64,000 nt of DNA from a virus (IMGVR_UViG_3300020045_009368:35780-99779), one strand, 5' to 3'. Shown: positions 37,473-55,150, counted from the stretch's first letter. Translations and numbers: made by a program. Notes: a model not told the origin generated them from the sequence alone.

Positions 37473-37506
37473 AATTAGGATTTGTCATAAATTTTTCGTA
37501 TATTGC
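37473..37506 (+). promoter_or_regulatory. Promoter of the homing endonuclease (TTAG...GTATATTG)
   Basis: aaattaggatttgtcataaatttttcgtatattg; similar to the promoter at 53351. Confidence 0.6.
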
Positions 37507-37526
37507 ATAAATTAAAAAACGCAAAT

Positions 37527-39457: not shown

Positions 39458-40225
39458 ATGATTGAATTACCAAACCAAAAAAGTAAAGTTGATAGAGTAA
39501 ATCCTAAAAAACTTATACTTTTCAGTAAACCTAAAGTAGGTAAAACTGAAGCATTGAGTAAATTAGAAAATTGTTTACTAATAGATTTAGAAGGAGGTGC
39601 TAATTTTGTAAAAGCTATGAAAATAGATGTATTAAAATTATCTAAAGAAGCAAATAAAGCACCAATTGCAATTCTAAAAGAAGTAATTAATAAAATACTT
39701 GAAGCAAACAAAGCAAAAGGAGATTTTGTTTACAAATATGGTGCAATAGACACTGTAACAGCTTTAGAAGATATGGTATTAGTATTAGCCAATAAGTTAT
39801 ATCAACAAACTCCACAAGGTCGTAATTGGACTGGAGATGATGTAACACAGCTTCCTAATGGAGCAGGTTATCAATACACTAGAAAAGCGTTATGGATGGT
39901 TTTAGAAGAGTTAGAAGAATGTTTTGATACATTAATCATACTTGGACATCTTAAAGATAAATTAGTTGAAAAAGAAGGTAAAGAAATGACTGAAAGAGGT
40001 CTTGATTTAATTGGTAAATCAGCATCAATACTATGTTCTCAAGTTGATGCGATTGGATATGTATATCGAGATGAAAATAAAACAATTGTTAACTTTGCAC
40101 CATCAGATTCATTAATTTGTGGTTCTAGATCAGAACATCTTAAAAATAAAAAAATTACTTTAATTGAACAATTACCAGATGAAAGTTTAAAAGTTGATTG
40201 GTCAGAAATCTTTATAAACGAATAA
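39458..40225 (+). CDS. AAA ATPase (Sak4/AAA_24-like)
   Basis: SKPKVGKT, LLIDLEGG, IDTVTALED, ILGH, VDAIGY. Confidence 0.85.
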   Translation: MIELPNQKSKVDRVNPKKLILFSKPKVGKTEALSKLENCLLIDLEGGANFVKAMKIDVLKLSKEANKAPIAILKEVINKILEANKAKGDFVYKYGAIDTVTALEDMVLVLANKLYQQTPQGRNWTGDDVTQLPNGAGYQYTRKALWMVLEELEECFDTLIILGHLKDKLVEKEGKEMTERGLDLIGKSASILCSQVDAIGYVYRDENKTIVNFAPSDSLICGSRSEHLKNKKITLIEQLPDESLKVDWSEIFINE

Positions 40226-40488
40226 TGAGCTTTTATAAAGAAGAAGCTTTTAATCTTTTTATTTCTGAATTAGAAGAAATAATTCAAAAAGGAGAAGGTT
40301 CAATAAGTAATGATTGTTTGTGTATAGGAGATATAGAATCTCATCTTTTAGAAATTGCAGAATCTAATGATGATTTTGAATCTAATGGATGGGAATTTGA
40401 TTATTGGTGCACATATAAAATAAAAGATAAAACACTTAATATAAGTGGATCTGGTTATTATGGTGGTTTACATATCATTATAGATTAA
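40198..40488 (+). CDS. Acidic hypothetical protein (start probably 40225)
   Basis: TAATG coupling at 40223-40227. Confidence 0.6.
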   Translation: MVRNLYKRIMSFYKEEAFNLFISELEEIIQKGEGSISNDCLCIGDIESHLLEIAESNDDFESNGWEFDYWCTYKIKDKTLNISGSGYYGGLHIIID

Positions 40489-40552
40489 ATAGTTATACTT
40501 CTACAAAAAGTAAAATATAAAAGCCAAAATTAATTAAATTAAAAAGAAGAAT

Positions 40553-41125
40553 ATGAGTTTTAACTTGAATGAATATGATAATACTGCAGTGTCAGTATTT
40601 AACAATGGAGTAGCTGGAAGAGTAGAGAATGTTTCAATTGATATTGAAAAAAGACGTGCAGATGAACCTGATTCTTATCCACCATATAAATTGGTAGTAA
40701 CAGATGGTTCTGGTGCAACACCATTAAATCAAGGATTTTACTTTGATGAGTCAGACGATGAAAAACGTCAAACTATGACAATTCAAAGAATTAAATCAAT
40801 TGCAAAAGCAGTAGTTCCTGCAGATTTTGTTTATCCAACAGTAAATAGTTATACTGAAGCAGTTAATAGTTTATTTAAAATTATTAAAGATAATGCTCCA
40901 GGTAAAAAAGTAAACGTATTTACTACTTATGGTTATGTAGGACAACAAAAAGCTGCAAAATATTTAGGATTAAGAATGTTTAATTTTATTGAAAGTCCAG
41001 ATGAAGCTTACAGTAGATTAAAACCTTCTGCAACTGATATTATGGAACGTCCAATTGCAGATGAACCTAAAGCAGATAGCTCAGGTGAAATAACATCTGC
41101 ACCTGCTACAGCTGGTTTGTGGTAA
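40553..41125 (+). CDS. Putative single-stranded DNA-binding protein
   Basis: Follows the Sak4-like ATPase; beta-rich with a flexible tail ending in W. Confidence 0.55.
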   Translation: MSFNLNEYDNTAVSVFNNGVAGRVENVSIDIEKRRADEPDSYPPYKLVVTDGSGATPLNQGFYFDESDDEKRQTMTIQRIKSIAKAVVPADFVYPTVNSYTEAVNSLFKIIKDNAPGKKVNVFTTYGYVGQQKAAKYLGLRMFNFIESPDEAYSRLKPSATDIMERPIADEPKADSSGEITSAPATAGLW

Positions 41126-41134
41126 TATAATAAA

Positions 41135-41210
41135 TGTGTTGTTCTCTTGAGAAAGGAATTGAGTCAGTAAGAGTATATGGAATCTTAACAACACAAATGA
41201 GTTCTCAGCA
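41135..41210 (+). ncRNA. Pseudoknotted structured RNA
   Basis: tgtgttgtt/aacaacaca stem; loop tgagaa complementary to downstream ttctca; taaga/tctta hairpin. Confidence 0.55.
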
Positions 41211-41218
41211 TTAAAATT

Positions 41219-41248
41219 AAAGGCTACTGTAACAGGTAGCCTTTTTTA
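41219..41248 (+). terminator. Intrinsic terminator
   Basis: aaaggctac...gtagcctttttt. Confidence 0.85.
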
Positions 41249-41344
41249 TTAACTAAAAACAAAATTATGAAAAAAATAGAAATTGGTGATAATGTATTTT
41301 GGGCAATTGTCTGGATATGTATTACTTTAATAATTATATTTTAA

Positions 41345-42376
41345 ATGATTGATTTAAATTATGAAAAACCTTTAATATCTAAACAAGGTATATTAGAACA
41401 TTATCAAGATATTGATATTTATAGAAAATATCTTCCTTATGATGTTAATATTGGAGGTAGACCTAATTTATCTCCATTTAGAGAAGAAAATAGACCTTCC
41501 TTTGGATTTTTTATTGGTGAAGGTAGAGAAGTATGTTTTAATGACTTTAAGCTTGGAAAAGGTAATTTTGTTAAATTCGTACAATTAAAATTTGGTTTAA
41601 CTTGGTGGGAAGCATTAAGTAAAATTGGAGTTGATTTTGATTTAGGTGATTATTTCATATTTAAAAATATGGAAAAAACTAAAGATTTAAATCAAATTAC
41701 ATATAAAACTAAAAGAGAAGATTTAATTTCTAAATCTGTTAACTATATTATAGGTAAAAGAAGTAGAAAATGGCAAACACATGATATATTATATTGGCAA
41801 CAATTTGGTATAACTAAAGAAACATTAATTAAATTTAGAGTTGAACCAATTGATTATATGTTTATTAATAATATTCCTTATATGGCTGATAAATATGCTT
41901 ATGCTTTCATTGAAAAAAAAGATGGAAAAGAAACATATAAAATTTATCAACCTTATAATGATACATATAAATGGATTAATAATCATGATGATTCAGTATG
42001 GCAAGGTTGGGAACAACTACCTAATACAGGAATAGATTTAATTATAACTAAATCATTAAAAGATGTAATGTCTTTATATGAAGTAGTAGGATTACCTGCA
42101 ATTTCTTTACAATGTGAAAACATATTACCAAAAAGACATGTTTTTGATCAATTAAAAGATAGATTTCAAGATATAACATTATTATATGATAATGATTTTG
42201 ATTCTGAAACTAATTGGGGAAGAAAATTTGCAGATAAATTAGCAAAGGAATTTGGTTTAACAGATTGTTTTATTGCAGATGAATACAAATCAAAAGATTT
42301 TTCAGATTTAGTTAAAAATTATGGAAAAGAAAAAGCTAAAGAAATATTATTAAAACAAACATTAGTACCTTTTTAA
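41345..42376 (+). CDS. dnaG: DNA primase (TOPRIM, crAss-type)
   Basis: SPFREENRPSF, LIITKSLKDVM, LYDNDFD, KDFSD. Confidence 0.85.
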   Translation: MIDLNYEKPLISKQGILEHYQDIDIYRKYLPYDVNIGGRPNLSPFREENRPSFGFFIGEGREVCFNDFKLGKGNFVKFVQLKFGLTWWEALSKIGVDFDLGDYFIFKNMEKTKDLNQITYKTKREDLISKSVNYIIGKRSRKWQTHDILYWQQFGITKETLIKFRVEPIDYMFINNIPYMADKYAYAFIEKKDGKETYKIYQPYNDTYKWINNHDDSVWQGWEQLPNTGIDLIITKSLKDVMSLYEVVGLPAISLQCENILPKRHVFDQLKDRFQDITLLYDNDFDSETNWGRKFADKLAKEFGLTDCFIADEYKSKDFSDLVKNYGKEKAKEILLKQTLVPF

Positions 42377-42378
42377 AA

Positions 42379-43002
42379 ATGGGACGAAGCAAAAGAAATA
42401 AAAATAAAAGAGCTGATAATTATTCTGCAATGGCAGCTGCTAAAGTAGAACAAAGAGCTAAAAAAAAACAAGAAAGAAATGAAAAACGTAGAATTGCTAA
42501 AAAACAAATTATGGAAAAAAGATATTTAGTAGGTTTTTATGGAGATTATAGACAAGGTACTAAAGAACATGCTGAAATTAGTAAAGTAGGAATGCATACA
42601 GTATTTAAAGGTATTTATGCTACAGAACCCGAATATGCTTTATATCAAATTAAAGGTGCTTCAGAATCTGCTTTACTAAAAGGAAATAATTCTGTAGTGA
42701 TAGAAGTTTATGAAATTAGTGAAAGTACGTTAGAAAAATTAGATATTTATCATGGTTTTGATAAAGATTCAAGTAGATATGAAGAACAATATTATTTAAG
42801 AAGAGAAATTGAATCTCCATTTACAAAAATTTATATTTATTTTTGGAATGAAGAAATTCAAGATAAAGATATTTTAATTAAAGATGGAGATTGGGTTGAT
42901 TATATTAAAAATATTAAAAAAAATAAAAGTGTAAATGAATCTTTAACAAATGCTTATGGTACAGCTTGTATTGAAATAGCAGATAAAGAATTTATGGATT
43001 AA
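42379..43002 (+). CDS. Gamma-glutamylcyclotransferase-like protein with basic N-terminal extension
   Basis: VGFYGDYRQG, IEVYEI...LEKLDIYHG, YLRREI, GDW; His where the catalytic Glu is expected. Confidence 0.7.
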   Translation: MGRSKRNKNKRADNYSAMAAAKVEQRAKKKQERNEKRRIAKKQIMEKRYLVGFYGDYRQGTKEHAEISKVGMHTVFKGIYATEPEYALYQIKGASESALLKGNNSVVIEVYEISESTLEKLDIYHGFDKDSSRYEEQYYLRREIESPFTKIYIYFWNEEIQDKDILIKDGDWVDYIKNIKKNKSVNESLTNAYGTACIEIADKEFMD

Positions 43003-43004
43003 TT

Positions 43005-43412
43005 ATGGATAAAAAAATATTAGTAGCTGTATACGGCTCATTACGCCAAGGATTACATAATCATAGATTATTAGAAAGTTCTAATTATTTAGGTGATTTT
43101 AATACAGAACCAATTTATTCTTTATATAGTTTAGGTTCATTTCCTGGATTAAAAGAAAATGGTAATACTTCTGTTGTAATGGAAGTTTATGAAGTAACAG
43201 AAGCTGTTGCAAGAAATGTAGATAGTCTTGAAGGTTATACACCAGGTGGAAATAATACATTTTATGATAAAATATCAATTGAAACACCTTGGGGTACTGC
43301 ATCTGTTTATACATATGTAAATGAATTACCTCAATCATCTCTTGTAGAAAGTGGTGATTGGAAAGAATTTAAAGAAAACGCATTAAGTTTTTATTCAATT
43401 AGAAACAATTAA
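43005..43412 (+). CDS. Gamma-glutamylcyclotransferase (AIG2/YtfP-like)
   Basis: VAVYGSLRQG..NH, FPGL, EVYEV, VDSLEGY, SGDW. Confidence 0.9.
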   Translation: MDKKILVAVYGSLRQGLHNHRLLESSNYLGDFNTEPIYSLYSLGSFPGLKENGNTSVVMEVYEVTEAVARNVDSLEGYTPGGNNTFYDKISIETPWGTASVYTYVNELPQSSLVESGDWKEFKENALSFYSIRNN

Positions 43413-43443
43413 AAAATTATAAAAAATAACAAAAATTATAAAA

Positions 43444-45054
43444 ATGAAAAATAAAAAAATAGGTATTGTTGGGCATTTTACAGGTCCTAATAGTTTTGGA
43501 ATCACTAAACCATATATGGAATTTTTTCAACATTTTGGTGAAATTATTATGTTATCTCCTTGGGATGAATCTCCAAGAGAATTAGATTTATTAGTGTTAC
43601 CTGGTGGTCCAGATGTCAATCCTTTTAGATATTTAACTGTTGAAGACAAATTAGATATAAATGTTGGTGTTCCTTGTATTGTTCGTGAAAAATTCGATAG
43701 AGAATTATTACCTCAATATATTGAAAAACAAACTCCAATTTTCGGGATAAATTAAGCATGTCCCACTATATAGTGATATATAGTTAAAAACGCGGTGAAC
43801 TCATGGAACGCTGAAATGCCAATCATGAGCTAAGCTTAGAGAGAAATCTCTTTGAAAGTGCAACGACTAGGAATCGAGATTAAGTTCTTCATTGTTGAAG
43901 AATATGTCAGTAATATTCCCAAGAGCGCCGTGGTTCTTATAAAAATTAATTAACTTAATAATGTTAATAGAAAAAGTTTCTAATTGTTCAAAATTAGCTT
44001 CATTTTTCATTGCATTTGCAAGTCTTGACAAAACAATAATATTACCTTTAATATACCCTTTAGAGTTATCTATTCTATCAATAGTAGCTCTTGAAATATC
44101 ATTAAAATTTAATTTATCATAATCATTACCTAAGTTTAAAATCTTATGGTTTTTATTATTATTATAATTTAATTTAATGTTTAATAAAGGACAATATTCA
44201 GGTAATTTAATATCTTCATAATGTAAATCAAAATCTAAATTTCTTCTTTTTGAAGAATATTTTACATTACGAATCATATAACCTTTAATTCTATCTTCTT
44301 TAGATAAATAATTATTATGAGTAAATGCTGGTTTTAAACCAAAACATTCTCTTATATAACCTATTCTTCTACGTGGGATATTAATTAATTCAGATATTTC
44401 TTTATCTGTATAATTTTGATTAATTAAAATTTCGATTTTATCAGCAGTTTGTTGATATTTTTCTTTATTCATTGTGATTTGTATTTAAAGTTACAAATCA
44501 CAATATACAACAATTTAATCAAAAAGTCAAGTAAATTAACAATTATTTTATATCTTTTTTAGATATAAAAATTATAAGAATATGATATAGTCTGAGCTTA
44601 CACAAATAGAAAGTGTAAGAAGTATAGGATAAAGAGCCTATACGATAACAGTCCTTGATGCAGAGGACATCAAACTTTAGCTGTACATTTTGGTGCTAAA
44701 TTAGTTCAAGATATGTATCATGAAACTAATCCAGATCATGACAGAAGAAAAAGAGTTCATACAATTAGAACTACAGAAGCTGTAAACTTAATTCCAGGTC
44801 TTGAAATGATTGATTTTGAATCAAACAGCTTACATCATCAAACTGTAGCTTTTGCTCCTGCAAATGCCGCTGTAATAGGTTATTATAAACCTACAGATCT
44901 TAAAGTTAAAGATTATGATGAAGAAATTGAAGCTTTAACATATTTTCCTAACTATCCAGCACATACAGTGCAATGGCATCCTGAAGAAATTTATGATAAC
45001 TTGTCAATTGCATGTATTAGACACCTTTTAAGTTTAAGTGATGAAGAAGTATAA
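43444..45054 (+). CDS. PuuD-like gamma-glutamyl hydrolase (class I GATase), spliced: join(43444..43748,44658..45054), 233 aa
   Basis: Exon 1 LVLPGGPDV...PIFG; splice restores FGICRGHQ; exon 2 NSLHHQ, VQWHPE. Confidence 0.9.
43867..44472 (-). CDS. Intron-encoded HNH-family homing endonuclease (antisense)
   Basis: N-terminal HTH; PEYCPLL, ATIDRIDNSKGYIKGNIIVLSRLANAMK. Confidence 0.82.
   Translation of the reverse strand: MNKEKYQQTADKIEILINQNYTDKEISELINIPRRRIGYIRECFGLKPAFTHNNYLSKEDRIKGYMIRNVKYSSKRRNLDFDLHYEDIKLPEYCPLLNIKLNYNNNKNHKILNLGNDYDKLNFNDISRATIDRIDNSKGYIKGNIIVLSRLANAMKNEANFEQLETFSINIIKLINFYKNHGALGNITDIFFNNEELNLDS
44471..44532 (-). promoter_or_regulatory. Internal promoter plus 13-bp hairpin overlapping the HNH start codon
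   Basis: caatatac 44501-44508; attgtgatttgta/tacaaatcacaat 44471-44504. Confidence 0.6.
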
Positions 45055-45844
45055 ATTAATTAAAGAATATCCTGGTAGTCCTAGTTTAAATACTAATGTT
45101 ACAATAGATGAAACAGGTTATAATTGTTTAAATTGTTCAAATGATTTAAAACCAGAAAAATATCCAGAATTTTGGCAACTTGTTGTTGAAAAAGATTATG
45201 AAATATTATCTTTAATTGTTAATAAAGATTATAATACTTTATATAAAGGAGATATTGTAACTAAGAAAAAGAATGATTGGATTGGTATTTCTAAAGATAA
45301 TAAAACAATTTGTTTTTCTCAAAATAATAATACTTTGGAAGAATATGATCATTGGTCTATAAATAGTATTAAAAGATTATCTGATGGTGAAATATTTACT
45401 ATTGGTGATAAAATTGGAACTCCAGGTAGAATTTTTCCTATTGTTGAATTTAAAATATATAATAATGAAAATACTATATTGATTAGTTCTTATTTTAATA
45501 AACATGGAAGTGGTCGTTATAATCAAAGATTAAAAGATTTAAAAAAAATTAAACAACCATTATTCACAACTGAAGATGGTGTTGAAATTTATGAAGGTAA
45601 TATTTATTATAAAGTAGTTAATGATACTTTTCAATTACTTATAATGGAAAATGCATCTAAAGGAGAAAGTTTAAAAAGTAAAGTATTTTCAACAAAAGAA
45701 AAAGCTGAAGAATATATTATTATGAATAAACCTTGTTTAAGTATTAATGAAATTTTAAATTTATATAAAGGACAAATAATCGATTTCACTCTTAAACCGA
45801 TTAGAATAAAAAATCTAGTTAAAACAAAATTAAAAAATGATTAA
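45038..45844 (+). CDS. Mosaic hypothetical protein
   Basis: YEILS...SIKRLSDGEIFTIGD module resembles one in 27271-29136. Confidence 0.7.
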   Translation: MMKKYKLIKEYPGSPSLNTNVTIDETGYNCLNCSNDLKPEKYPEFWQLVVEKDYEILSLIVNKDYNTLYKGDIVTKKKNDWIGISKDNKTICFSQNNNTLEEYDHWSINSIKRLSDGEIFTIGDKIGTPGRIFPIVEFKIYNNENTILISSYFNKHGSGRYNQRLKDLKKIKQPLFTTEDGVEIYEGNIYYKVVNDTFQLLIMENASKGESLKSKVFSTKEKAEEYIIMNKPCLSINEILNLYKGQIIDFTLKPIRIKNLVKTKLKND

Positions 45845-46697
45845 AAAGAAAAAATATAGTTTATTTAGACCTATGATTCTTAGTCGCCATCCTTCTCACT
45901 CAGTGTTAAGGTTGGCAGATAAGAACATTCAAGCACTTCCTTATAGAAGTGTTGTTAGATTAGGGTCTACTACAGAATGTAATGATACTATTGCTAGAGG
46001 TGGTGATAGAATTGAAATTAATTCTATTCAATCAATTAAAAACTCAGCGAATAAACTTTTAATGAAACAAAAGTTTTTAGAAGCTAATGTTAAAACAGCT
46101 AATTGGACTTCTTATGTAAGTGATGTTGCAATGAAACAATTTACAGAAGAAAATGGATTTCCAATTGTAGCTAAAGCTCATTTTGGTTCTAAAGGTAAAG
46201 GTAACACTTTAATTAAATCTCAAGAAGAATTAAATACTTGGATGCAAGGTAAAACACTTAGTAATTATATATTTGAAAAATTTATGAACTATGGTCATGA
46301 ATTTAGATTACATATAACAGAAGATGGTTGTTTTTATGTCTGTAGAAAAGCATTACGTAAAGATACTCCACCTGAAGAAAAATGGCATTTTCACGATACA
46401 ACTTGTGTTTGGTTATTAGAAGAAAATGAAAGTTTCTTTAAACCAAATAGTTTTAATGATATTGTCTCTGATTGTATTAAAGCTTTAAAATCTGTTGGTG
46501 CTGATTTGTTAAGTTTTGATGTTAAAGTACAATCACCAACTGATAAAGATGGTAATAAAAGACCTTATCAAGATTATATATTACTTGAATGTAATAGCGC
46601 TAGTTCTATGGACAATGGTACTGGTGAATTGTCAGTATGCGCTAAAAAATATATTAATGAAATTCCAAAAATTATAATAAGAAAAGCAAATGTATAA
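45837..46697 (+). CDS. ATP-grasp ligase (RimK/YheCD-like)
   Basis: NSANKLLMK, FPIVAK..FGSKGKG, EFRLH, FDVK, LECNSA. Confidence 0.85.
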   Translation: MIKKKKYSLFRPMILSRHPSHSVLRLADKNIQALPYRSVVRLGSTTECNDTIARGGDRIEINSIQSIKNSANKLLMKQKFLEANVKTANWTSYVSDVAMKQFTEENGFPIVAKAHFGSKGKGNTLIKSQEELNTWMQGKTLSNYIFEKFMNYGHEFRLHITEDGCFYVCRKALRKDTPPEEKWHFHDTTCVWLLEENESFFKPNSFNDIVSDCIKALKSVGADLLSFDVKVQSPTDKDGNKRPYQDYILLECNSASSMDNGTGELSVCAKKYINEIPKIIIRKANV

Positions 46698-47058
46698 AAC
46701 TGAAGAATTTACATTAATAAATAGTATTTTTCCTAGAGTTTGGCAAACTAAATATCAAAATCTTAATGTTATAGAATCTCCTGTAATGAATTGTCAACAT
46801 TGTTCAATTGGTGGATTTGAAAATATTTTAAGAAGAAAAAGTATTATAGATATTGGAAGACAATTAAAAGAAATTCAAAAACTAGCTAATTTTGATCGTA
46901 GAAATTTTATAGTAGATATAAATAATGACTTTTTAGAAAAATTAAATAAAGTATTTAAAAATAGAATTCTTTTACAATCAGAATACATAAGTAGCAATGG
47001 TAATGATCGTGTATTGTGTATAATTAGTTTTAATAAAATAAAAAAGAAAAATGAATAA
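46690..47058 (+). CDS. Family B (GNAT-like?) small protein
   Basis: NCQHCSIGG ... FIVDI ... YISSNGNDRVLCII. Confidence 0.55.
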   Translation: MYKTEEFTLINSIFPRVWQTKYQNLNVIESPVMNCQHCSIGGFENILRRKSIIDIGRQLKEIQKLANFDRRNFIVDINNDFLEKLNKVFKNRILLQSEYISSNGNDRVLCIISFNKIKKKNE

Positions 47059-48046
47059 AAATCAAGACTATTGGATAAGTGCAGTTCAAGATGCATTTAA
47101 AAATAATAAAAATAGTAAAGAACAAATTAGAATATATATTGAAACATGTGATCCTGTTAAATATAGAGATACACCTGGTAAAGATATAGATGAAAAAGCA
47201 GATTTTATATTTAATTATAAAAAAGAACCAGAAAAACCTAAAGAAAAAATTAAAATTATTTTATTAGTTGCTAATGATACAGAACCAAATGAAGATATTA
47301 AATATCTAAGTACAGATTTTGATATTACATTAATGAAACATTCTGAAATTGGAACTAAAACTCCTGATTTAATTTTATTTACAGGTGGTGAAGATGTTAA
47401 TCCTGATATATATGGTGAAAAAGAAGGTAAATATACATCTGTAAATAAAAAAAGAGATGAAATAGAAAGTAATATTTATTGGAATTTTCCAAAAGTACCT
47501 AAACTTGGTATTTGTAGAGGAGCTCAGTTTTTAACAGTAATGTCAGGTGGTAAACTTGTACAACATCTTGAAAATCATGGTAGAGATCACACTATTCAAG
47601 TTGAAAATAGAGGTAAATATCATATGACTTCTACACATCATCAAATGATGTATCCTTTTAATATGAATAAAAATGAATATGAATTAATTGGTTATTCTGA
47701 ATTCTTTAGAAGTAAAACTTATCTTAATGGTAATAATGAAGAAATTGAAACAACTAAAGATTTTTTAGAAGCTGAAATAGTTTATTATCCTAATACAAAA
47801 TCATTATGTATTCAAGGGCATCCTGAATATAATCATTGTGAACAAAGAACTAAAGATATGTGTTTAAATCTAATTCATAATTATTTATTTTCTAAAAAAG
47901 AAATTAAAAATACTAAATCATCATATTCTTGGGATGATGAAAATGGAGATTTTGAAGAATATGATGAAGCACCTATTCAAATATTTAAAGAAAAAGATTC
48001 AATACCTAGTTATTATGGAAAATTTACACAAACTATTAAAAGATAA
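47051..48046 (+). CDS. Second class I glutamine amidotransferase / PuuD-like hydrolase
   Basis: LFTGGEDV, LGICRGAQ, STHHQ, IQGHPE. Confidence 0.9.
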   Translation: MNKNQDYWISAVQDAFKNNKNSKEQIRIYIETCDPVKYRDTPGKDIDEKADFIFNYKKEPEKPKEKIKIILLVANDTEPNEDIKYLSTDFDITLMKHSEIGTKTPDLILFTGGEDVNPDIYGEKEGKYTSVNKKRDEIESNIYWNFPKVPKLGICRGAQFLTVMSGGKLVQHLENHGRDHTIQVENRGKYHMTSTHHQMMYPFNMNKNEYELIGYSEFFRSKTYLNGNNEEIETTKDFLEAEIVYYPNTKSLCIQGHPEYNHCEQRTKDMCLNLIHNYLFSKKEIKNTKSSYSWDDENGDFEEYDEAPIQIFKEKDSIPSYYGKFTQTIKR

Positions 48047-48059
48047 AAAAAATAAAAAT

Positions 48060-48857
48060 ATGAAAATAACAAATGTAACATTAGGTTCTGATCCAGAATT
48101 ATTTTTAGAAAAAAATGGAGAAATTATTTCTTCAGTTGGTTTAATTGGAGGTACTAAACATGAACCAAGAGCAATTACTGATAATGGACATGCTGTTCAA
48201 GAAGATAATGTCGCTATTGAATATAATATTCCACCATGTAAAACTGTTGGTGAATGGATTAAAGAACATAATTTTGTAAAAGATTATTTAGATACATTTA
48301 CTGCAGGATTAGGTTGTAATTTAAATTTTTCAGCATCTGCTGAATTGTCTGATGAACAATTAAATTCTGAACAAGCACAACAATTTGGATGTGAACCTGA
48401 TTTTAATGTTTGGGAGCAATGTGTAAATACTCCACCTGAAATTGGTGGTAATTTACGAGTTTGTGGTGGACATATTGCAATTGGTTGGAATAATCCAACA
48501 GAAGAAGTTCAAGAACAAATGATTAAAGCTATGGATATGACTGTAGGTTTAAAATCATTATTTTTAGATAATGATACAAGACGTAAAGAAATGTATGGTA
48601 AAGCAGGTTGCTTTAGATTTACTAACTTTGGTGTTGAATATCGTGTTTTAAGCAACTTTTGGATTGCTACAGATGAATTACTTGCTTGGGCATTTAATAC
48701 TACCTTAGAAGCAATTGAATTAGTTAATTCAGGTAGAATAGAAGAACTTTCTGCAAAATATAAAGATAGAATTGTAGACGCAATTAATACTAATAATAAA
48801 GAATTAGCAAATGAATTATTAGAAATTATTAATGAAAAAGAATTACAACTAGTATAA
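48060..48857 (+). CDS. phiEco32-like COOH-NH2 ligase type 2
   Basis: TLGSDPELFL, QEDNVAIEYN, FGCEPDFN, GGHIAIG, YGKAGCFR, GVEYRVLSNFW; ATG at 48060 preferred over 47934. Confidence 0.88.
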   Translation: MKITNVTLGSDPELFLEKNGEIISSVGLIGGTKHEPRAITDNGHAVQEDNVAIEYNIPPCKTVGEWIKEHNFVKDYLDTFTAGLGCNLNFSASAELSDEQLNSEQAQQFGCEPDFNVWEQCVNTPPEIGGNLRVCGGHIAIGWNNPTEEVQEQMIKAMDMTVGLKSLFLDNDTRRKEMYGKAGCFRFTNFGVEYRVLSNFWIATDELLAWAFNTTLEAIELVNSGRIEELSAKYKDRIVDAINTNNKELANELLEIINEKELQLV

Positions 48858-48877
48858 AAATAAAAAAAAACAATTAA

Positions 48878-50914
48878 ATGATAATACTAATTATAGGAAT
48901 ATTAGCTATTTTACAATATTTAAATCATATAATCTTTAAACCTAAATATAACACATTAAATTGTGGTATTTTTGGTAACTTTACAAAACGTCCAGAAAAT
49001 ATAAATGTTTCAGATTTTAATATCTTAGGTATTTATAATATTGAAAGAGGTAAAAATTCTTGTGGTATTACTTATGATGGAGAAACACATCATGGTATAA
49101 ATGCAGATAAATTATACATTGATTTTATTAAAGGTAGGTCAATAAAACCAAAATTATACCCTTCTATTATTGGACATACAAGACAAGCTTCACCTGGTAA
49201 CGTTATAAGTTTAGATAATTCACATCCTTTTGGATTTGGAGATTTAAATGATGGATATGCTTTTGTTGGAGTTCATAATGGAACTTTAAAAAATCATGAA
49301 GATTTAGCAAAAAAATATGATATTGAATTAAAAGTTGCATCTGGTGATACATTAAGAACTAAAATTGATAGTGAAATTATATTAGAAATTTTATATAAAG
49401 AAAAAAATTTTAGAGTTTTAAGTGAATATATTGGCGCTGCAGCATTAGTTTGGCAATGGTTAGCTGAACCAAATAAAGTATATTTATGGTCAGGTGCTTC
49501 TAGAGAATATGATTATTCATATTCTAAAGTAGAAGAAGAAAGACCTTTATGTGTTTATTTAAAATCTAAAAACAATATGTTTGTTTCATCTTTACTTGAT
49601 AGTTTAAGTGCTATTGGTGGTAATAAAGATAATTCATTTCAAATTGAATACAATACAGTTTATTGTGTTACTGATGGTGATTTTAAAAATGCTCAAAGTT
49701 GGAAAATAAGTAGAGAAAATGCTACACAAAATGAATCTAGTAAAAGTTGGACTAGTAGTAAAAATTATAATTTAAATGGTAGACATAGTGATTATGATGA
49801 TTCTGTAGAAGAATATTATGGTCATATGGCAAGAAAAAGTAGACATGATTATACACAAACTTTTCCAAAAGATGAAAGAAATAATACAATTACTTTAAAT
49901 ATTCATGAAGAAAAATTAAGATATGATCAAAATTCATATGGTAAAAAAATCTATTTTAATAAACTTAGATATTACCAAAATGGACATACTATTAACGGTG
50001 TTTATTGTTATGTTAAAGATTATGGTTTTGTATATCTTGCTACTTCTGTAAAAGATGCTGAAACAAATTTACAAAATAAAAAAGGACTTGCTTTTAGTAA
50101 TGGAGAATTTTCAAAAAGTACTAATGCAAATGACATTATACCTTTTAAAATAGATACTAAAAATATATCTTTATTTTATTTTGTTGAAGGTGTTCAAATG
50201 AAAACAGCTTTAGATTATTTTGCAATGTCTAGAGTTAAAAAAGAATTAAAAGCAGGTACATATTTACCATATAGAGATTTATCTTATGTTTCAAAACATC
50301 CTGTTATTAATATTAGTACAAGTGGTAACATTTCTAAAGAAAAACAAGAAATTTTATATGGAGGTGTTCTTTGTAATACTATTAATGGTGGTATTTGTCC
50401 TTTAGGTAGTGAAAAAGTTTATTATATTTCTAATGGAAATTTAACAAAACTAATGTTAAGACAAGACCTAAATAAAGATGAAGTTCAACTTCCTATTGTT
50501 TTTGATAAAACTGAAAAAAAAGATTATTCACTTTTAAATTCAGCAATGAATAATATTATTTTAATTGAAGAAAAAATAGTAACAAAAGAAAAAAATGATA
50601 AAACTTTTGAAGTAAGTTTACAAAGTGATGATAAATTTATAGAAAAATTAGAAAAAGAAAAAACTAATTTTCTTGATAGTTTAGAACCTCATGAAAAAGA
50701 AGCATTTGATAAAATTGTAGCTGAGGAAGAAGAAAATGAATTAATTGAAGGTATTGTTAATGAATGTTTAACAGATCCTATTCAAGAAATCATAGATTTA
50801 AAAAATAAATTACAAGCATATTTACCTAATAAAAGAGCTCAAGAGCATATTGAATTATTAGATCAAATGTTAGATGTAATTAATATGTTTATGGTTAAAG
50901 ATAATAAAAAATAA
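48878..50914 (+). CDS. Class II (Ntn) glutamine amidotransferase with a 28-aa hydrophobic leader and long C-terminal extension
   Basis: CGIFG at residue 29, RG.NSCG, GHTRQAS, NSHPF, HNGTL, IDSE. Confidence 0.88.
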   Translation: MIILIIGILAILQYLNHIIFKPKYNTLNCGIFGNFTKRPENINVSDFNILGIYNIERGKNSCGITYDGETHHGINADKLYIDFIKGRSIKPKLYPSIIGHTRQASPGNVISLDNSHPFGFGDLNDGYAFVGVHNGTLKNHEDLAKKYDIELKVASGDTLRTKIDSEIILEILYKEKNFRVLSEYIGAAALVWQWLAEPNKVYLWSGASREYDYSYSKVEEERPLCVYLKSKNNMFVSSLLDSLSAIGGNKDNSFQIEYNTVYCVTDGDFKNAQSWKISRENATQNESSKSWTSSKNYNLNGRHSDYDDSVEEYYGHMARKSRHDYTQTFPKDERNNTITLNIHEEKLRYDQNSYGKKIYFNKLRYYQNGHTINGVYCYVKDYGFVYLATSVKDAETNLQNKKGLAFSNGEFSKSTNANDIIPFKIDTKNISLFYFVEGVQMKTALDYFAMSRVKKELKAGTYLPYRDLSYVSKHPVINISTSGNISKEKQEILYGGVLCNTINGGICPLGSEKVYYISNGNLTKLMLRQDLNKDEVQLPIVFDKTEKKDYSLLNSAMNNIILIEEKIVTKEKNDKTFEVSLQSDDKFIEKLEKEKTNFLDSLEPHEKEAFDKIVAEEEENELIEGIVNECLTDPIQEIIDLKNKLQAYLPNKRAQEHIELLDQMLDVINMFMVKDNKK

Positions 50915-50916
50915 CA

Positions 50917-52665
50917 ATGAGTAGCGAAAAAATAGTAATTACAGTACAAAATGAAAAATTACCTATTTCAAAATGTAAAAATTTTAACAAACTTTGGTAT
51001 AAAATAGGTGATACTAAAATAAAAGACTCTGGTGATTGTTATTTAATAAGTGATAAATATTATAGACAAGAAACAGGTTTAATAGTTTTTAACTATTCAA
51101 TAAATGAATATATGATTAAAAATAATAATTTAATAGAAGGTATCGTAGAATTTGCAAATAACGAACCTCTTTTTGGTAATTTTGAAAAAGATACTTCTTT
51201 ACCTTCAGTAACTTTAGAAAATGGAATGTCTTATTATATTCTAAATTATAATTCTATTGAAAATAATAAAGAATATCGAGAACATTTAGGAAGTGGTAAT
51301 TTTTATCATATTTCTAAAATGGCAGCAAATAAATTTAACACTTTAAATATTCCAAGACAAGAATATAAACATAGTTTACCTTATGACTCAAAGGGAATTA
51401 CAGATAAATTTATAAACATTTATAAAGAAAATTATAAAGGTGAAATATCTCCTAATATTAAAAAATATGCAGGAATGTTAGGAGATTTATCTTTTGGTCT
51501 TGAATTTGAAACGACTAAAGGTTTTATACCTGATAGAATTTTAGAACAAACAGGTTTAATTCCATTGAGAGATGGTTCTATTTCAGGTATTGAATATGTA
51601 ACAATTCCTTTAGAAGGAGCAAAAGGTTTACAAACAGTTGTAGACCTTTTAAAACCTTTAAAAGAAAGAACTACATTTAATGATACTTGTTCTTTACATT
51701 TACATTTAGGAAATATTCCAAGAACTAAAGAATTTATTTTAGCATTCTTTAAATTAACTTGTATGGTACAAGATGAAATATTTGCGATGTTTCCAATATA
51801 TAAAAAGTATAATTTTAGAATTAAAAATAAAAATTATTCAGCACCGTATCCAACTTTTGATTTAATGTCTAGAATGGATCCTGTAATTAATACTAATAAT
51901 ATTAATGAAAATTTTAATATTTTATATACTTTTTTATCTGAAGGACAAGATTTTTCTGAAGTTAATTATGATTTAAAAAATGTAAATTTCCATCCAAGAG
52001 ATCCTGAAGGAACTCAAAAATGGAATATTCACACACGTTATTTTATTCATAATTTAATTCCATTAATTTTTGGTAATAAAACAACTGTTGAATTTAGAAT
52101 TCATACTCCTACATATGATGTAAATAAAATTATTCCTTTTATATTAATTAATTCAATATTAGTTAATTATGTTATTGAAAATCAAAAACACATATTAGGT
52201 AATAAAAGTTTCTTTTATAAAAAAACATTGTATTCTATTATTTCAGAACATTTAAGAAGTAAAGTTTCTGATAATGGTTCATTAGAAGATTCTATTATGG
52301 ATTATTTAAGTATTAGAAAAAGTATTACTGAAAGTCAAAATGGTAATGGTATAATTAAAGGTGATGAAGAAAACATTAGAAGTTCTAAGTATTTAAATTG
52401 GAATCAAACTAATAAAGAACCATCTTTATTAGATATTGGTGAAATTCAATATAAAAATAGAGGTATTCGTAAAGCTAGTCCTTTTGGTATTAAAGCTAAA
52501 TCTTGGATGGGAACACATCAGTATCAAAGTTTTGATTCTTTACAACAAGAAACGCAAGACTTTAATTTGAGAAAAAAAATGCAAGAGACATTGATGCCGC
52601 CTGGTTATGTTGATGATTTTTCAGTAACAAGTAAACAAATTTTAGAAAATGCAGATAATTCATAG
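50917..52665 (+). CDS. Amidoligase (glutamine synthetase/GCS-like fold)
   Basis: FGLEFET, RDGSISGIEYVT, CSLHLHLG, RYF, TVEFR. Confidence 0.85.
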   Translation: MSSEKIVITVQNEKLPISKCKNFNKLWYKIGDTKIKDSGDCYLISDKYYRQETGLIVFNYSINEYMIKNNNLIEGIVEFANNEPLFGNFEKDTSLPSVTLENGMSYYILNYNSIENNKEYREHLGSGNFYHISKMAANKFNTLNIPRQEYKHSLPYDSKGITDKFINIYKENYKGEISPNIKKYAGMLGDLSFGLEFETTKGFIPDRILEQTGLIPLRDGSISGIEYVTIPLEGAKGLQTVVDLLKPLKERTTFNDTCSLHLHLGNIPRTKEFILAFFKLTCMVQDEIFAMFPIYKKYNFRIKNKNYSAPYPTFDLMSRMDPVINTNNINENFNILYTFLSEGQDFSEVNYDLKNVNFHPRDPEGTQKWNIHTRYFIHNLIPLIFGNKTTVEFRIHTPTYDVNKIIPFILINSILVNYVIENQKHILGNKSFFYKKTLYSIISEHLRSKVSDNGSLEDSIMDYLSIRKSITESQNGNGIIKGDEENIRSSKYLNWNQTNKEPSLLDIGEIQYKNRGIRKASPFGIKAKSWMGTHQYQSFDSLQQETQDFNLRKKMQETLMPPGYVDDFSVTSKQILENADNS

Positions 52666-53338
52666 AAATAAAGGAGTAGAAATTAAAAATGATTATACTG
52701 AATTATTAGGTGATTGGTGTAAACCTTTAGTAGGATTGCTTGTTAATGATTATATGAAAAATTTAATATTTTTCATTGATGAAATATATAAGCAATTTCA
52801 ATCAGTATATCCTGTAAAAGAAGATTTATTCTATGCTTTTAAATTGTGTGAATATAAAAAATTAAAAGTTGTAATTCTTGGAAATCAACCATGGCAAAAT
52901 CCTAAATCAAACGGTTTAGCTTTTGGTGCACATTCTAAAGCAGGAGATTTACCAGCCTTTACTGAAAGTATTAAAGATTGTGTTAATGAAACAGTTTACC
53001 CTCATAATCCTCAATGGTTTGATAGAACAATGAAACATTGGGCTGAAGGAGGTATTTTAATGTTAAATACAACATTAACTACATTATATGGTCAAGATCA
53101 TGAAAAATACTGGAGAAATTTTACAAGAGAAGTGATAAAAACAATTAATAGAGAAAAAGAAAATATTGTTTTTATATTTCTTCAATCTGGTAATGAACAT
53201 TTTAAAAAGTATATTGATCCAAAAAAACATCTTATTTTAGAAAACCCAAATTTAGGTTTTGTAGATCCAAGTTTAGATATTTTTAACGAAACTAATGACT
53301 TTTTAAGAGATAATGGAATAAAAGATATTATTTGGTAA
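52649..53338 (+). CDS. Uracil-DNA glycosylase-fold protein with altered active site
   Basis: YP..ED.F.AF, KVVILGNQPW (cf. GQDPY), NGLAF, WAEGGILMLNTTLT; no HPSP. Confidence 0.8.
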   Translation: MQIIHRNKGVEIKNDYTELLGDWCKPLVGLLVNDYMKNLIFFIDEIYKQFQSVYPVKEDLFYAFKLCEYKKLKVVILGNQPWQNPKSNGLAFGAHSKAGDLPAFTESIKDCVNETVYPHNPQWFDRTMKHWAEGGILMLNTTLTTLYGQDHEKYWRNFTREVIKTINREKENIVFIFLQSGNEHFKKYIDPKKHLILENPNLGFVDPSLDIFNETNDFLRDNGIKDIIW

Positions 53339-53350
53339 AATAATTTAAGT

Positions 53351-53388
53351 AAAATTAGGAATTGTCATTTATTTTTGTTATATTTGTA
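53351..53388 (+). promoter_or_regulatory. Bacteroidota-type promoter (TTAG...TATATTTG)
   Basis: aaaattaggaattgtcatttatttttgttatatttgta. Confidence 0.7.
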
Positions 53389-53408
53389 TTTCACAAATAT
53401 ATATAATT

Positions 53409-53852
53409 ATGAATGACAATCTTATTTTTATAAATGGTAATGTTCCATCCTTAAAAAATTCAAAAGTAAAAACCAGTAGAGGTATCTTTAGTTCAAAATC
53501 TGTTAAAAAATATTTAGCAAATTTAGGAATACAAAGGTATTCATCTAGTAGAAAAGAAGTAATTGGTTATAAAACAAAATCTAATACATTTCAAGATGAA
53601 ATTGTACCACAAATAATCAAATTATTAGAAAATAAAGAAGCACCTTATGAAATAGGATTTCATTTTGTAAGAGGCTCAAAACATTCTTTTGATTTTAATA
53701 ATGCAAATCAATTAATTGCAGATTTAATTGTGGCACACAATGTTATTGAAGATGATAATATGGATTATTTTATACCATATGCTTTTAAGATAGAAAATAA
53801 TTTCTATTCTTATAACAAAGAAAATCCAGGTGTTTGGCTTGAGATAAAATAA
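53409..53852 (+). CDS. RusA-like Holliday junction resolvase
   Basis: VPSLKNS, FDFNNA.Q.IAD, IEDDN. Confidence 0.7.
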   Translation: MNDNLIFINGNVPSLKNSKVKTSRGIFSSKSVKKYLANLGIQRYSSSRKEVIGYKTKSNTFQDEIVPQIIKLLENKEAPYEIGFHFVRGSKHSFDFNNANQLIADLIVAHNVIEDDNMDYFIPYAFKIENNFYSYNKENPGVWLEIK

Positions 53853-53859
53853 AATAAAA

Positions 53860-54159
53860 ATGAAAAGAAAACAATTACAAAAAATTAAAGAATTAGCAAT
53901 GTTTATATTTAATGAAAATGAATATAAACGATTTATTACTAGTATGATTAATCAAAAATATAATGATGCTAGATTATTTTTAGATTACATAAATGAAAAA
54001 TTTGAATATAATTTAGAACAATTAGAATTTATTGATGATAATGAATTATTACTACGACAATATAAAAAAATTGATTCTTTAATGGATATTGTGATTGAAC
54101 TAATAATAGTGAATGAAGATAGAAAATGCGAAGGGAAACAAATTAGAGCAATTGCTTAG
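53860..54159 (+). CDS. Hypothetical protein
   Basis: ORF track. Confidence 0.6.
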   Translation: MKRKQLQKIKELAMFIFNENEYKRFITSMINQKYNDARLFLDYINEKFEYNLEQLEFIDDNELLLRQYKKIDSLMDIVIELIIVNEDRKCEGKQIRAIA

Positions 54160-55150
54160 TGATGATGAAAATATAGATTTAAAACTTAGTTATTCACGAA
54201 TTAGTGATTTTGATAGAAATGGACCGAAAGCTTTAATTAGACCGTCAAATCCTGATGGTAATGGATTAAGATTTGGTTCTTTAACAGATGATTTACTATT
54301 AGACACATTAACAAATAATAAATCTTTTAATGAGAAATATTATTTATTTGATGGAAATAAACCAACAGCAACATTAGGTACTTTATGTGATATTGTTATA
54401 GATAATTATGATAAATTACCTGATGTTGAAACGGTTTTAAAAATAGTAAAACATAATGCTTTTTGGAGTAATATAAAAGTAGATGAGAACTTAACTAAAA
54501 AATTTAATATTGACGAGTTTTGGGATTATTTAAAAATTATATATGAAACTAAAAATAGATTAATTGTTACAAGTAATGATTATGATGATGCGAAAGAATG
54601 TGTTAATTTATTAATTAATCACAAACACACACATTCATTATTTAACAATGATTTTGACAACTATTATCAATTTGATTTTAGTTATGATTATAAAGGTTTT
54701 ACTTTAAGAGGTATTATTGATAAATTATCAATAGATCACAAAAATAAAATTGTTTATATTGAAGATATAAAAACAGGTTCTAGTAAAGCTGATGAATTTT
54801 TAAAAAGTTTTATTAAATACTGTTATTATTTTCAAGAAGCAGTTTATTGTAAAGCATTTAATACAATATGTGAAAAACTTAATTTAGAGAATTATACTCT
54901 AGCACCATTTAAATTTATATTTATTGGTAGATTTGAAAAAGTTCCACATGTATTTACAATGTCTGAGAAATGGCATAATGCAGCCTTAAATGGCTTTAAA
55001 ACAACGTCTGGTTATAAATATAAAGGTTTAGATGAAAATCTAGATTTAATATATTATCATTGGAAAAACAAAGTTTATGACTTCAATAAAGAAGTGTATG
55101 AACAAAATGGAAGTTTAATTTTAAACGACGAGTTTATAGAAGTAAATTAA
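54113..55150 (+). CDS. PD-(D/E)XK exonuclease (RecB/Cas4-like)
   Basis: LSYSRI, LRGIIDKL, EDIKT, YYFQEAVY. Confidence 0.8.
   Translation: MKIENAKGNKLEQLLSDDENIDLKLSYSRISDFDRNGPKALIRPSNPDGNGLRFGSLTDDLLLDTLTNNKSFNEKYYLFDGNKPTATLGTLCDIVIDNYDKLPDVETVLKIVKHNAFWSNIKVDENLTKKFNIDEFWDYLKIIYETKNRLIVTSNDYDDAKECVNLLINHKHTHSLFNNDFDNYYQFDFSYDYKGFTLRGIIDKLSIDHKNKIVYIEDIKTGSSKADEFLKSFIKYCYYFQEAVYCKAFNTICEKLNLENYTLAPFKFIFIGRFEKVPHVFTMSEKWHNAALNGFKTTSGYKYKGLDENLDLIYYHWKNKVYDFNKEVYEQNGSLILNDEFIEVN

Follow-up and report, generated by a model that had tools for sequence, protein, structure and literature searches.

A crAss-lineage phage amidoligase cassette of the phiEco32 type: gene content, ligase-cleaver pairing and a predicted group I intron

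An array of eight enzyme genes

The window analysed here is a 64,000-nt stretch of viral DNA (IMGVR_UViG_3300020045_009368:35780-99779), that is, bases 35780-99779 of a genome of 99,779 bp with a G+C content of 24.7%. Between positions 42379 and 52665 it carries an amidoligase cassette of the kind known from phage phiEco32. An original prediction, made from the sequence alone, had placed eight enzyme genes in this span, between a primase and a degenerate uracil-DNA glycosylase (UDG), and both the genes and the flanks were found as described. All eight genes lie on the plus strand and each has a match above the curated Pfam cut-off, on which the family calls are based; PHROG profiles, with E values from 1e-13 to 1e-74, and NCBIfam models were used as well.

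The array opens with two GGACT-type genes. The first, G1 (42379-43002; PF06094, 48.6 bits, cut-off 22.8), encodes a gamma-glutamyl(amine) cyclotransferase paralogue, and the second, G2 (43005-43412; 63 bits for the same family and cut-off; phrog_2520, E 3.6e-26), is a canonical member, a core gene of the cassette, 44% identical to g037 of phage phi14:2. They are followed by Ca, a C26/PuuD-like hydrolase gene in two predicted exons (43444-43748 and 44658-45054) that cover positions 57-111 and 146-219 of the PF07722 profile. If the interruption is disregarded, Ca is read as two half-gene open reading frames (ORFs), both with Peptidase_C26 matches above the cut-off of 20.5 (43444-43755, 26.1 bits; 44713-45054, 24.8 bits). 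The next core gene encodes a RimK-like ATP-grasp ligase (45837-46697; PF02222, 29.9 bits, cut-off 27; NCBIfam rimK_fam 1.8e-12, below its cut-off), 45% identical to phi14:2 g038. The second C26/PuuD-like hydrolase, Cb (47051-48046; PF07722, 59.3 bits, cut-off 20.5; phrog_7218, E 1.2e-33), is a core protein with an N-terminal extension of about 100 residues, and is the partner of the phiEco32-type COOH-NH2 ligase type 2 encoded after it (48060-48857; PF14395, 29.1 bits, cut-off 25; phrog_3815, E 9.7e-74). The array is completed by a class II glutamine-amidotransferase-type (GATase_6) protein with an N-terminal nucleophile (Ntn), encoded at 48878-50914 (PF13522, 39.2 bits, cut-off 27), and by an Amidoligase_2 (50917-52665; PF12224, 24.4 bits, cut-off 22; phrog_2443, E 5.8e-34). 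The Ntn protein consists of a hydrophobic leader of 28 residues (48878-48961), the nucleophilic Cys and its domain, and then a C-terminal region of about 400 residues that ends in long helices.

The gene models first proposed were right as to the eight enzymes and had to be revised in two of them. Ca contains a predicted intron, and the start of the COOH-NH2 ligase was corrected from 47934 to 48060, given that the phrog_3815 match begins at residue 43 of the long ORF; therefore this gene does not overlap the preceding one. The span also holds two additional ORFs on the same strand. One encodes a protein of 268 residues (45038-45844; phrog_11079, E 2.7e-54) with no Pfam or NCBIfam match and no Atlas lead of 0.9 or above, which is present in 4 of 82 loci, in three of them at other positions, and is probably a hitch-hiker. 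The other, of 122 residues (46690-47058), has no family match in Pfam or PHROG and was found in 4 of 82 loci, its homologues at this position being confined to the closest relatives (L003, L004 and L005). Both were considered as pathway members and rejected, each occurring in four loci only. Pfam searches at E<=5 with these two proteins, the Ntn C-terminal region, the N- and C-terminal regions of the Amidoligase_2 and the extensions of Cb and G1 gave nothing beyond noise.

Residue conservation was assessed in alignments of 28-35 homologues per enzyme, drawn from related loci, and all eight enzymes retain their catalytic residues. In the Ntn protein, numbered from the Cys, the invariant residues are C1, R74, H105-N106-G107 and D136-S137, which we take to be the PurF-type nucleophile, the Arg that binds the glutamine carboxylate, the oxyanion hole and the Asp that binds the amino group. 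The model of its residues 1-252 matches PurF (Z 24.1), GlmS (24.0), EgtC (21.6) and AsnB (21.0); beyond residue 252, neither the following 200 residues or so nor the long helices at the end had a meaningful structural match or an Atlas lead of 0.9 or above. The Amidoligase_2 keeps G194, E196, E198, D219, G220, S221, E226, H261 and H263, and its model (predicted local distance difference test score 84.8) contains a catalytic domain of the glutamine synthetase (GS) fold at about residues 170-480. All 18 chains matched at Z>=8 are carboxylate-amine ligases of the GS, glutamate-cysteine ligase (GCL), YbdK, Dop, PafA or GmaS type (top Z 10.5); the best of them, tied at Z of about 10, are Dop, a YbdK-like protein, a plant GCL, a naphthylamine GS, GS and PafA. 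To our knowledge, all characterised members of this type of fold activate a glutamate-type carboxylate. The all-beta N-terminal domain of the protein (residues 1-150) occurs only in the crAss lineage and has no structural match. Profiles of the Amidoligase_2 and of the COOH-NH2 ligase had no meaningful match among PDB sequences, and the Amidoligase_2 model had none in Foldseek at E<=0.001.

Among 30 homologues of the COOH-NH2 ligase 62 columns are invariant, and among 31 of the ATP-grasp ligase 40 are, including K113, E147, E155, R157, D223, D228 and E251. The motifs C-R-G-x-Q and H-P-E are invariant in Cb, and the triad is kept in the 14 aligned Ca homologues, so that both C26 subfamilies retain the Cys (CRGxQ) and H-P/V-E; CRGHQ of Ca aligns with CRGAQ of Cb and of phage cr108_1. 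Against PDB sequences the C26 profile matched Lin1909 (3fij, 3.6e-22), 7d4r (1.9e-14) and PuuD (6vtv, 7.9e-11), and CarA and GuaA at 7.8e-8 and weaker. G2 has the YGSL motif and the catalytic Glu. In the G1 type this Glu is invariant in 16 of 16 sequences and the pocket motif YG[ST]L is replaced by YD[DSH]x or YGDY (YGDY in the window), which suggests an altered substrate and not decay. The hydrolases had been described as duplicated; two copies of each are indeed present, and it is the idea of recent duplication that does not hold. The two C26 copies are about 28% identical and the two GGACT copies about 30%, and at some loci a Ca-type C26 stands alone in the place of Cb; judged from these sequences, both pairs are old paralogous subfamilies able to replace each other.

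Conservation, pairing and chemistry of the cassette

The distribution of the cassette was surveyed in 80 IMG/VR loci collected through an alignment-based search of viral contigs, a single-protein search of viral contigs with the Amidoligase_2 having given no match. Profile hidden Markov models (HMMs) were built and used to score all ORFs, and the counts below refer to the 42 loci of at least 18 kb. The Ntn enzyme is encoded in all 42, the ATP-grasp ligase and the Amidoligase_2 in 41 each, C26 in 40 and GGACT in 36, and all six core families occur together in 35. Across 16 gene orders the Ntn and Amidoligase_2 genes are adjacent in 41 of 41 loci, C26 and the COOH-NH2 ligase in 37 of 40, and the ATP-grasp ligase and GGACT in 21 of 36, a figure that rises if the Ca gene inserted between the last two in this lineage is disregarded. 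The core is thus organised in three pairs: ATP-grasp ligase with GGACT, COOH-NH2 ligase with PuuD-like C26, and Amidoligase_2 with the class II amidotransferase-type Ntn enzyme. A minimal module of C26 and COOH-NH2 ligase only, suggested by phmmer at about 15 loci, was dropped when the profile HMMs found the remaining genes to be present and diverged.

Conserved catalytic residues and co-occurrence of the genes in relatives, two of the checks named with the original prediction, have therefore both come out in its favour. Its view of this version as unusually elaborate has to be given up: the order with two GGACT and two C26 genes recurs in 12 of the 42 loci, and the plain six-gene order in 10, so the enlarged cassette is, on this survey, the norm of a sublineage, a lineage trait and no oddity. 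Nor is its occurrence in a crAss-like phage special. The core is already annotated, in the same slot between primase and UDG and with the same core gene order, in phi14:2 (g037-g041; protein identities 30-45%) and in cr108_1 (gp028-gp034; 28-43%), of the Steigviridae, Asinivirinae. Phage phi14:2 shares the hydrophobic leader of the Ntn protein, but has one GGCT and no C26, whereas in cr108_1 a single C26 and two other hypothetical genes are found, GGCT is not recognisable and the Ntn protein starts with M-C; the intron is present in neither phage.

Relatives of the COOH-NH2 ligase number 2761 at E<=1e-5 in the protein collection searched, many of them on contigs of about 100 kb, and the ligase is found in 314 GenBank phage records, mostly of phages of Pseudomonas (LUZ24/PaP3 group), Escherichia (phiEco32-like), Vibrio, Aeromonas, Proteus and Salmonella. 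Among 185,579 prokaryote species genomes, one per species, 28 loci were detected, nearly all on contigs of metagenome-assembled genomes and several of phage size, in a search that recovers pattern-matching relatives only. From these sequences, the cassette is a unit of phage genomes, essentially absent from cellular chromosomes.

The phiEco32-type cassette was reportedly described by Iyer, Abhiman, Burroughs and Aravind in 2009 and again by Hardies in 2013. Its known carriers include phiEco32, 7-11, LUZ24, PaP3, tf, PA11, RIO-1, HP1 and CW02, and the assignment of the array to this type, made in the original prediction, was upheld. The window encodes PF14395, PF12224 adjacent to an Ntn protein with N-terminal Cys, and an ATP-grasp ligase together with a GGCT/AIG2-like protein, all co-occurring on phage genomes. 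As in the other members, which usually also have a class I GATase/C26, the genes are placed among early or replication genes, and the Ntn-Amidoligase_2 and C26-COOH-NH2 ligase adjacencies are conserved. Several differences set the window lineage apart. The order is GGACT, ATP-grasp, C26, COOH-NH2 ligase, Ntn, Amidoligase_2, whereas in podovirus-type loci C26 and the COOH-NH2 ligase precede ATP-grasp, GGACT, Ntn, Amidoligase_2 and a second Ntn; a second GGACT and a second C26 are present; the Ntn protein has 678 residues instead of about 430-520, and the Amidoligase_2 carries its extra N-terminal beta domain; and the short second Ntn-like protein is lacking. This last protein, of 215-490 residues and starting with MC[LI]I, is encoded directly after the Amidoligase_2 in podovirus-size loci (L032:5826-7109, L040:11183-11854, L051:15963-16634 and about 20 more). 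It has no Pfam match, groups by BLAST with divergent Ntn amidotransferases, resembles a stand-alone Ntn hydrolase and is absent from the window. The further conserved families of the podovirus-type loci had no Pfam match either.

Ligases paired with enzymes that cleave what they make are known from several gamma-glutamylation pathways: the ATP-grasp BtrJ with the GGACT-like BtrG in butirosin synthesis, the GS-type PuuA with the C26 hydrolase PuuD in putrescine utilisation, and EgtA with the Ntn enzyme EgtC in ergothioneine synthesis. In all of them glutamate is joined to an amine through its gamma-carboxyl and is removed later. The cassette resembles these pathways, and PauA with PauD-SpuA, in combining GS-fold or ATP-grasp ligases with C26, Ntn or GGACT enzymes that remove gamma-glutamyl groups. 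It differs from them in that no oxidase, dehydrogenase, carrier protein, pyridoxal phosphate (PLP) enzyme or sulfoxide synthase is encoded in it. Regarding the Puu and Pau pathways, a C26 of the PuuD/SpuA type is present (PF07722 above cut-off), with the NCBIfam PuuD equivalog reaching only 7e-4, far below its cut-off, and no ORF of 39458-55716 has a GlnA-family, oxidase or dehydrogenase match in Pfam or NCBIfam. Likewise, of the butirosin set (BtrI/J/K/O/H/G) only the ATP-grasp and GGACT components were found, with no match to carrier-protein, PLP-enzyme or acyltransferase families. The window ligases share the fold of PuuA and EgtA, not the sequence family, and the profile searches of PDB sequences found neither. 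Because the intervening enzymes of the precedent pathways are not encoded, the cassette belongs to none of them.

The explanation that we favour, with a probability of about 0.55, is that of a crAss-lineage (Steigviridae-like) cassette of the phiEco32/LUZ24/RIO-1 type whose three ligase-cleaver pairs would make and trim gamma-glutamyl-type amides at an amine carried by a small molecule or peptide. A glutamylated polyamine or peptide, as put forward in the original prediction, is one candidate for the product. It is favoured because the Amidoligase_2 matches are all of the GS fold, because GGACT is nearly universal in the loci and because the pairing of ligase and cleaver has the precedents just described. 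The gamma-glutamyl label of the original prediction thus gains support from the GS, GCL and Pup-ligase folds, the only ones matched by the Amidoligase_2 at Z>=8, from the proximity of C26 to PuuD, from the glutamine-binding residues of the Ntn enzyme and from GGACT itself.

As to the order of the reactions, the substrate and the biological purpose, we infer the following. The Amidoligase_2 and the COOH-NH2 ligase, as GS-fold enzymes, and the ATP-grasp ligase would form gamma-glutamyl-type or other amide bonds, via acyl-phosphate intermediates, with a small molecule or short peptide that offers at least one primary amine. The glutamate would later be taken off, as Glu or as 5-oxoproline, by the hydrolases of the pairs and by the cyclotransferase. 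The gamma-glutamyl group would then be a transient carrying or protecting group during assembly of a final amide-linked product, in the cytoplasm or at the inner membrane face, and G1 and Ca, as old diverged paralogues, would widen the range of substrates.

Several points weigh against this explanation. In the literature searched there is no measured product, substrate or phenotype for any member of the cassette, in agreement with the earlier statement that its product is not established. The logic of adding and then removing glutamate comes by analogy with the precedents; nothing to handle a protected intermediate was found in the cluster, be it a carrier protein, an oxidase, a decarboxylase or a transferase, and neither the C-terminal region of the Ntn protein nor the N-terminal domain of the Amidoligase_2 has a recognisable fold. 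Moreover, both GATase-type enzymes may in fact serve to donate ammonia.

If they did, C26 and the Ntn enzyme would hand ammonia from glutamine to the neighbouring ligases, which would convert the carboxylates of a metabolite or peptide to carboxamides in the manner of MurT/GatD or of asparagine synthetase B. The Ntn domain is as near to the glutaminase domains of PurF, GlmS and AsnB as to EgtC and retains all glutamine-binding residues, its large extra region recalls the synthase domain of true amidotransferases, and the close adjacency of both enzymes to their ligases would suit such a transfer, which may take place in the Ntn-Amidoligase_2 pair. However, that extra region shows no match to a synthase fold, and the C26 profile matches PuuD-type hydrolases (3.6e-22 to 7.9e-11) much better than CarA or GuaA. 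GGACT, a cleaver of gamma-glutamyl-amines only and no ammonia donor, is nevertheless present in 36 of the 42 loci, and the podovirus-type loci carry after the Amidoligase_2 the second, short, stand-alone and hydrolase-like Ntn protein starting with M-C. Amidation with glutamine-derived ammonia is the principal mechanistic alternative to the making and trimming of gamma-glutamyl amides, possible though doubtful. Another candidate product, a glutathione-like compound serving a phage glutaredoxin, was rejected, as no CxxC redoxin motif occurs in the window ORFs.

A predicted group I intron in the Ca gene

The interruption of Ca is a predicted group I intron of 909 nt on the plus strand (43749-44657), inserted one base before the codon of the catalytic Cys. 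Exon 1 ends with TPIFG and the AT of an Ile codon, and exon 2 starts with (A)TGC, the TGC being the Cys of CRGHQ, and holds the His and Glu of WHPEE. Joining U43748 to A44658 is predicted to restore the frame and to give FGICRGHQ, as in 12 uninterrupted homologues (TPIFGICRGHQ). In a search of 1.2 kb the Rfam model Intron_gpI (RF00028) matched from 43739 with 27.9 bits (E 7.9e-5), the gathering score being 50, and the intron was not reported by the gathering search of the whole window; the score may be lowered by a 600-nt antisense ORF inside the core. The main pairings were read directly in the sequence: P1 joins GGGAU (43744-43748) to GUCCC (43760-43764) with a U43748-G43760 pair, P7 joins GACUA (43865-43869) to UAGUC (44588-44592), and omega-G is 44657.

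The antisense ORF (43867-44472, minus strand) encodes an HNH homing endonuclease (phrog_3322, E 7.5e-21; phrog_3118 HNH, E 8.8e-10), and an equivalent is present in L009, L024 and L060. A perfect hairpin of 12-13 bp lies over its start codon (44470-44505), and was seen only through spurious matches of Rfam miRNA models. The intron of L009 is 85% identical and occupies the identical site. Copies 69-75% identical are found in L060 (8492-9466) and L024 (8711-9511) in the paralogous gene Cb, 7 nt further downstream, after CRG (exon end GGGU) and not before the Cys codon. This suggests that the intron moved between C26 paralogues, guided by a short GGG(A)U match of the exon to the internal guide. 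Alleles without the intron exist in relatives: in run X4, labelled as freshwater DNA, a 13,172-nt contig spans the site and encodes TPIFGICRG, and in run X18, a wastewater RNA library, a 2,247-nt contig, which may derive from DNA, covers both Ca exons with no intron between them. Both contigs show many synonymous differences from the window, also in the bases of the P1 pairing (TTTGGTATT against TTCGGGATA).

Like group I introns of other phages (such as T4 td, nrdB and sunY; SPO1 with I-HmuI), the element interrupts a conserved enzyme gene at a codon of the catalytic site, has a U-G pair in P1 and an omega-G, and is present or absent among close relatives. It differs from them in that its HNH ORF is antisense and runs through core pairings, that its Rfam score falls short of the gathering threshold, and that related copies sit in a paralogous C26 gene, further downstream. 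Other cassette genes are split elsewhere, namely the COOH-NH2 ligase in L081 (8603-10480), the Amidoligase_2 in L058 (9602-12222) and the ATP-grasp ligase in L042 (4183-6019); the Rfam gathering search reported no intron in these gaps. Insertions thus seem to strike the cassette often. Predicted introns come repeatedly at catalytic-site codons of its genes, and it is therefore argued that the enzymes are under selection and in use.

Site of action, flanking genes and significance

Among the cassette proteins only the Ntn enzyme has a hydrophobic segment, its leader (Kyte-Doolittle hydropathy 2.31), and there is no start codon beside the nucleophilic Cys. In about half of 58 homologues (L001-L082) a leader of 26-48 residues is found, with basic residues after the hydrophobic stretch and the pattern M..IILILALLQY..F..K...L[NSG] before CG; the remainder start with M-C. 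Since crAss-like and podovirus-size loci each include proteins with and without it, the leader, as far as these sequences tell, has been gained or lost more than once. It would have to be removed for activity if the enzyme behaves like B. subtilis PurF. Basic tails are a second feature of this kind. G1 has a polybasic N-terminal tail of 48 residues (42379-42525), all G1 homologues having 17-21 K/R in their first 60 residues, and similar tails are found on C26 of the podovirus-type loci L040:4420, L051:9159 and L055:5348, so that one type of tail (for example MGRSKRNKNK... or MSRKSKRNKNKK...) is carried by different cleaving enzymes. Leader and tails are weak hints of association with a membrane or a polyanion.

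Related to this, the same type of cassette goes in the literature by the names of amidoligase cassette or 'peptidoglycan modification cassette', and modification of the envelope or peptidoglycan is proposed in PMC5498523 (citing Hardies 2013 and Iyer) and PMC10580990; the roles put forward in the literature are superinfection exclusion or secondary-metabolite synthesis. No experiment on its function was found in the literature searched. According to the envelope proposal, a peptide on a lipid-linked precursor (lipid II stem, capsule or O-antigen) would be built or altered by the cassette at the inner membrane face, and the outcome would be a changed surface and the exclusion of superinfecting phages. 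The transmembrane-like leader of about half of the Ntn homologues would fit this role, and the polybasic tails of G1 and of some C26 proteins could bind acidic membranes. On the other hand, the rest of the cassette proteins have no hydrophobic segment, about half of the Ntn homologues are leaderless, and the loss of the leader needed for activity would release the enzyme from the membrane. Mur-ligase, glycosyltransferase and flippase genes are not linked to the cassette, and the amidoligase/GATase pair has been reported in viruses assigned, as predicted hosts, to Poseidoniales archaea, which have no peptidoglycan. Envelope modification is therefore considered unlikely. A more specific and rather speculative version, to which we give little credence, has a cassette at the inner membrane face, with leader and tails as targeting elements, gamma-glutamylate and process the amine of a lipid-linked or polyamine substrate. 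If it were true, superinfection would be blocked or a polyamine-based host response neutralised, and the G1 and Ca paralogues would widen the range of targets.

The tails could also bind ribosomes or proteins bound to nucleic acids, as would suit a cassette whose ligases modify a protein of the host or the phage with glutamate or a short peptide, like RimK on ribosomal protein S6 or PafA with Pup, the hydrolases trimming or reversing the tag. The best NCBIfam match of the ATP-grasp ligase is the RimK family, Dop, PafA and small-molecule ligases share the top rank among the structural matches of the Amidoligase_2 (Z 10.2-10.5), and GGACT is generally known to act on gamma-glutamyl-epsilon-lysine. 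Protein modification is nevertheless very unlikely. With 47 bits the RimK score is far under the 143 bits that the family requires, GS and GCL are matched just as well as PafA and Dop, and there is no conserved small protein that could serve as a tag, the small ORFs of the span occurring in only 4 loci each.

The surroundings of the cassette are those of a crAss-like replication module. Cellulophaga phage phi14:2 (Crassvirales, Steigviridae) has a portal protein 57% identical to the one encoded here, the identity to human-gut crAss-like phages being 43-47%, and the module is collinear with that of phi14:2 from DnaB to the SNF2 helicase. Upstream lies the DNA primase gene (41345-42376, plus strand; phrog_12622, E 3.7e-67; 43% identical to phi14:2 g036), probably the first gene of the transcription unit. 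Neighbouring cassette genes abut or share a few bases, and the only strong terminator-like hairpin in 41000-53600 is found just upstream of the primase (41219-41244), with no terminator-like site in 41245-53600; for these reasons the array is probably co-transcribed with the primase and with the UDG-like gene downstream. Megablast of the whole span against GenBank phages gave no match; in sequencing runs at most 0.19 of the sampled words were contained, and the matches in X1 and X3 were short pieces only.

The family-1 UDG homologue, outside the cassette on its downstream side (52649-53338, plus strand; NCBIfam ung 1.7e-35, 122.8 bits against a cut-off of 162), lacks both catalytic residues: GQDPY has become GNQPW, with loss of the Asp, and HPSP has become ENPN, with loss of the His. 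Among 35 homologues only cr108_1 keeps intact motifs (GQDPY/HP). The decay is stepwise across the clade, many members having G[KRS]EPY with or without HPS and the window sublineage GNQPW/ENPN or DNRPV/INPF, which suggests a shift to a non-catalytic role. Functional coupling of the cassette to UDG was examined and rejected, given that UDG is found in only 25 of the 42 loci, precedes the cassette instead of following it in L070 and L079, and does not occur in podovirus-size loci.

These data bear on attachment of the product to DNA, one of the targets raised in the original prediction, which is weakened by them. The cassette would, in that case, decorate an amine-bearing base, and the dead UDG-fold protein would read or protect the modified base. 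Its position within the replication module, the overlap of the Amidoligase_2 stop with the start of a UDG homologue devoid of the catalytic Asp and His, and the polybasic tail of G1 would agree with this. However, a thymidylate-synthase-type hydroxymethylase was not found in the genome (tblastn of phi14:2 g032 against the 99,779 bp, best E 8.1; 5-hydroxymethyldeoxyuridine kinase and aGPT-Pplase were not searched), only 6 viral loci have one within 10 kb, and crAss phages whose annotation makes no mention of the cassette have UDG as a standard replication gene. We know of no base modification in the cultured cassette phages phiEco32, LUZ24 and PaP3. As there is no hydroxymethylase and UDG is absent or displaced in many loci, its adjacency is best read as crAss synteny, and DNA hypermodification by the cassette as extremely unlikely.

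Three other features of the window were recorded. A free-standing homing-endonuclease-like gene with two NUMOD3 motifs (37503-38249, plus strand; E 1.4e-18) immediately follows the gene of the DnaB-like helicase, and phi14:2 has none at the corresponding position. A GroEL-type chaperonin gene (6761-8257, minus strand; phrog_5725, E 1.3e-106) adjoins the large terminase gene. At 27031-27089 (plus strand) there is a tRNA-like Rfam match of 59 nt (46.5 bits), and ARAGORN found no tRNA in the whole window.

The window is thus a further member of a known and still unexplained phage cassette, for which the gamma-glutamyl and amide-ligase reading has support as far as the chemistry of the enzymes goes. 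The cassette is among the most widespread phage-only enzyme sets without a known product, and has been unexplained since 2009. Cultured carriers already exist, such as LUZ24/PaP3 (Pseudomonas), phiEco32-like phages (E. coli) and phi14:2 (Cellulophaga), and the window neither solves the question nor makes it newly testable. What the analysis adds is that three ligase-cleaver pairs survive 16 gene orders, that the Amidoligase_2 has a fold of the GS/GCL/PafA type, that the hydrophobic leader of the Ntn enzyme, a presumed propeptide, is optional, that the linkage to UDG is best read as synteny only, and that predicted introns recur at catalytic-site codons of these genes.

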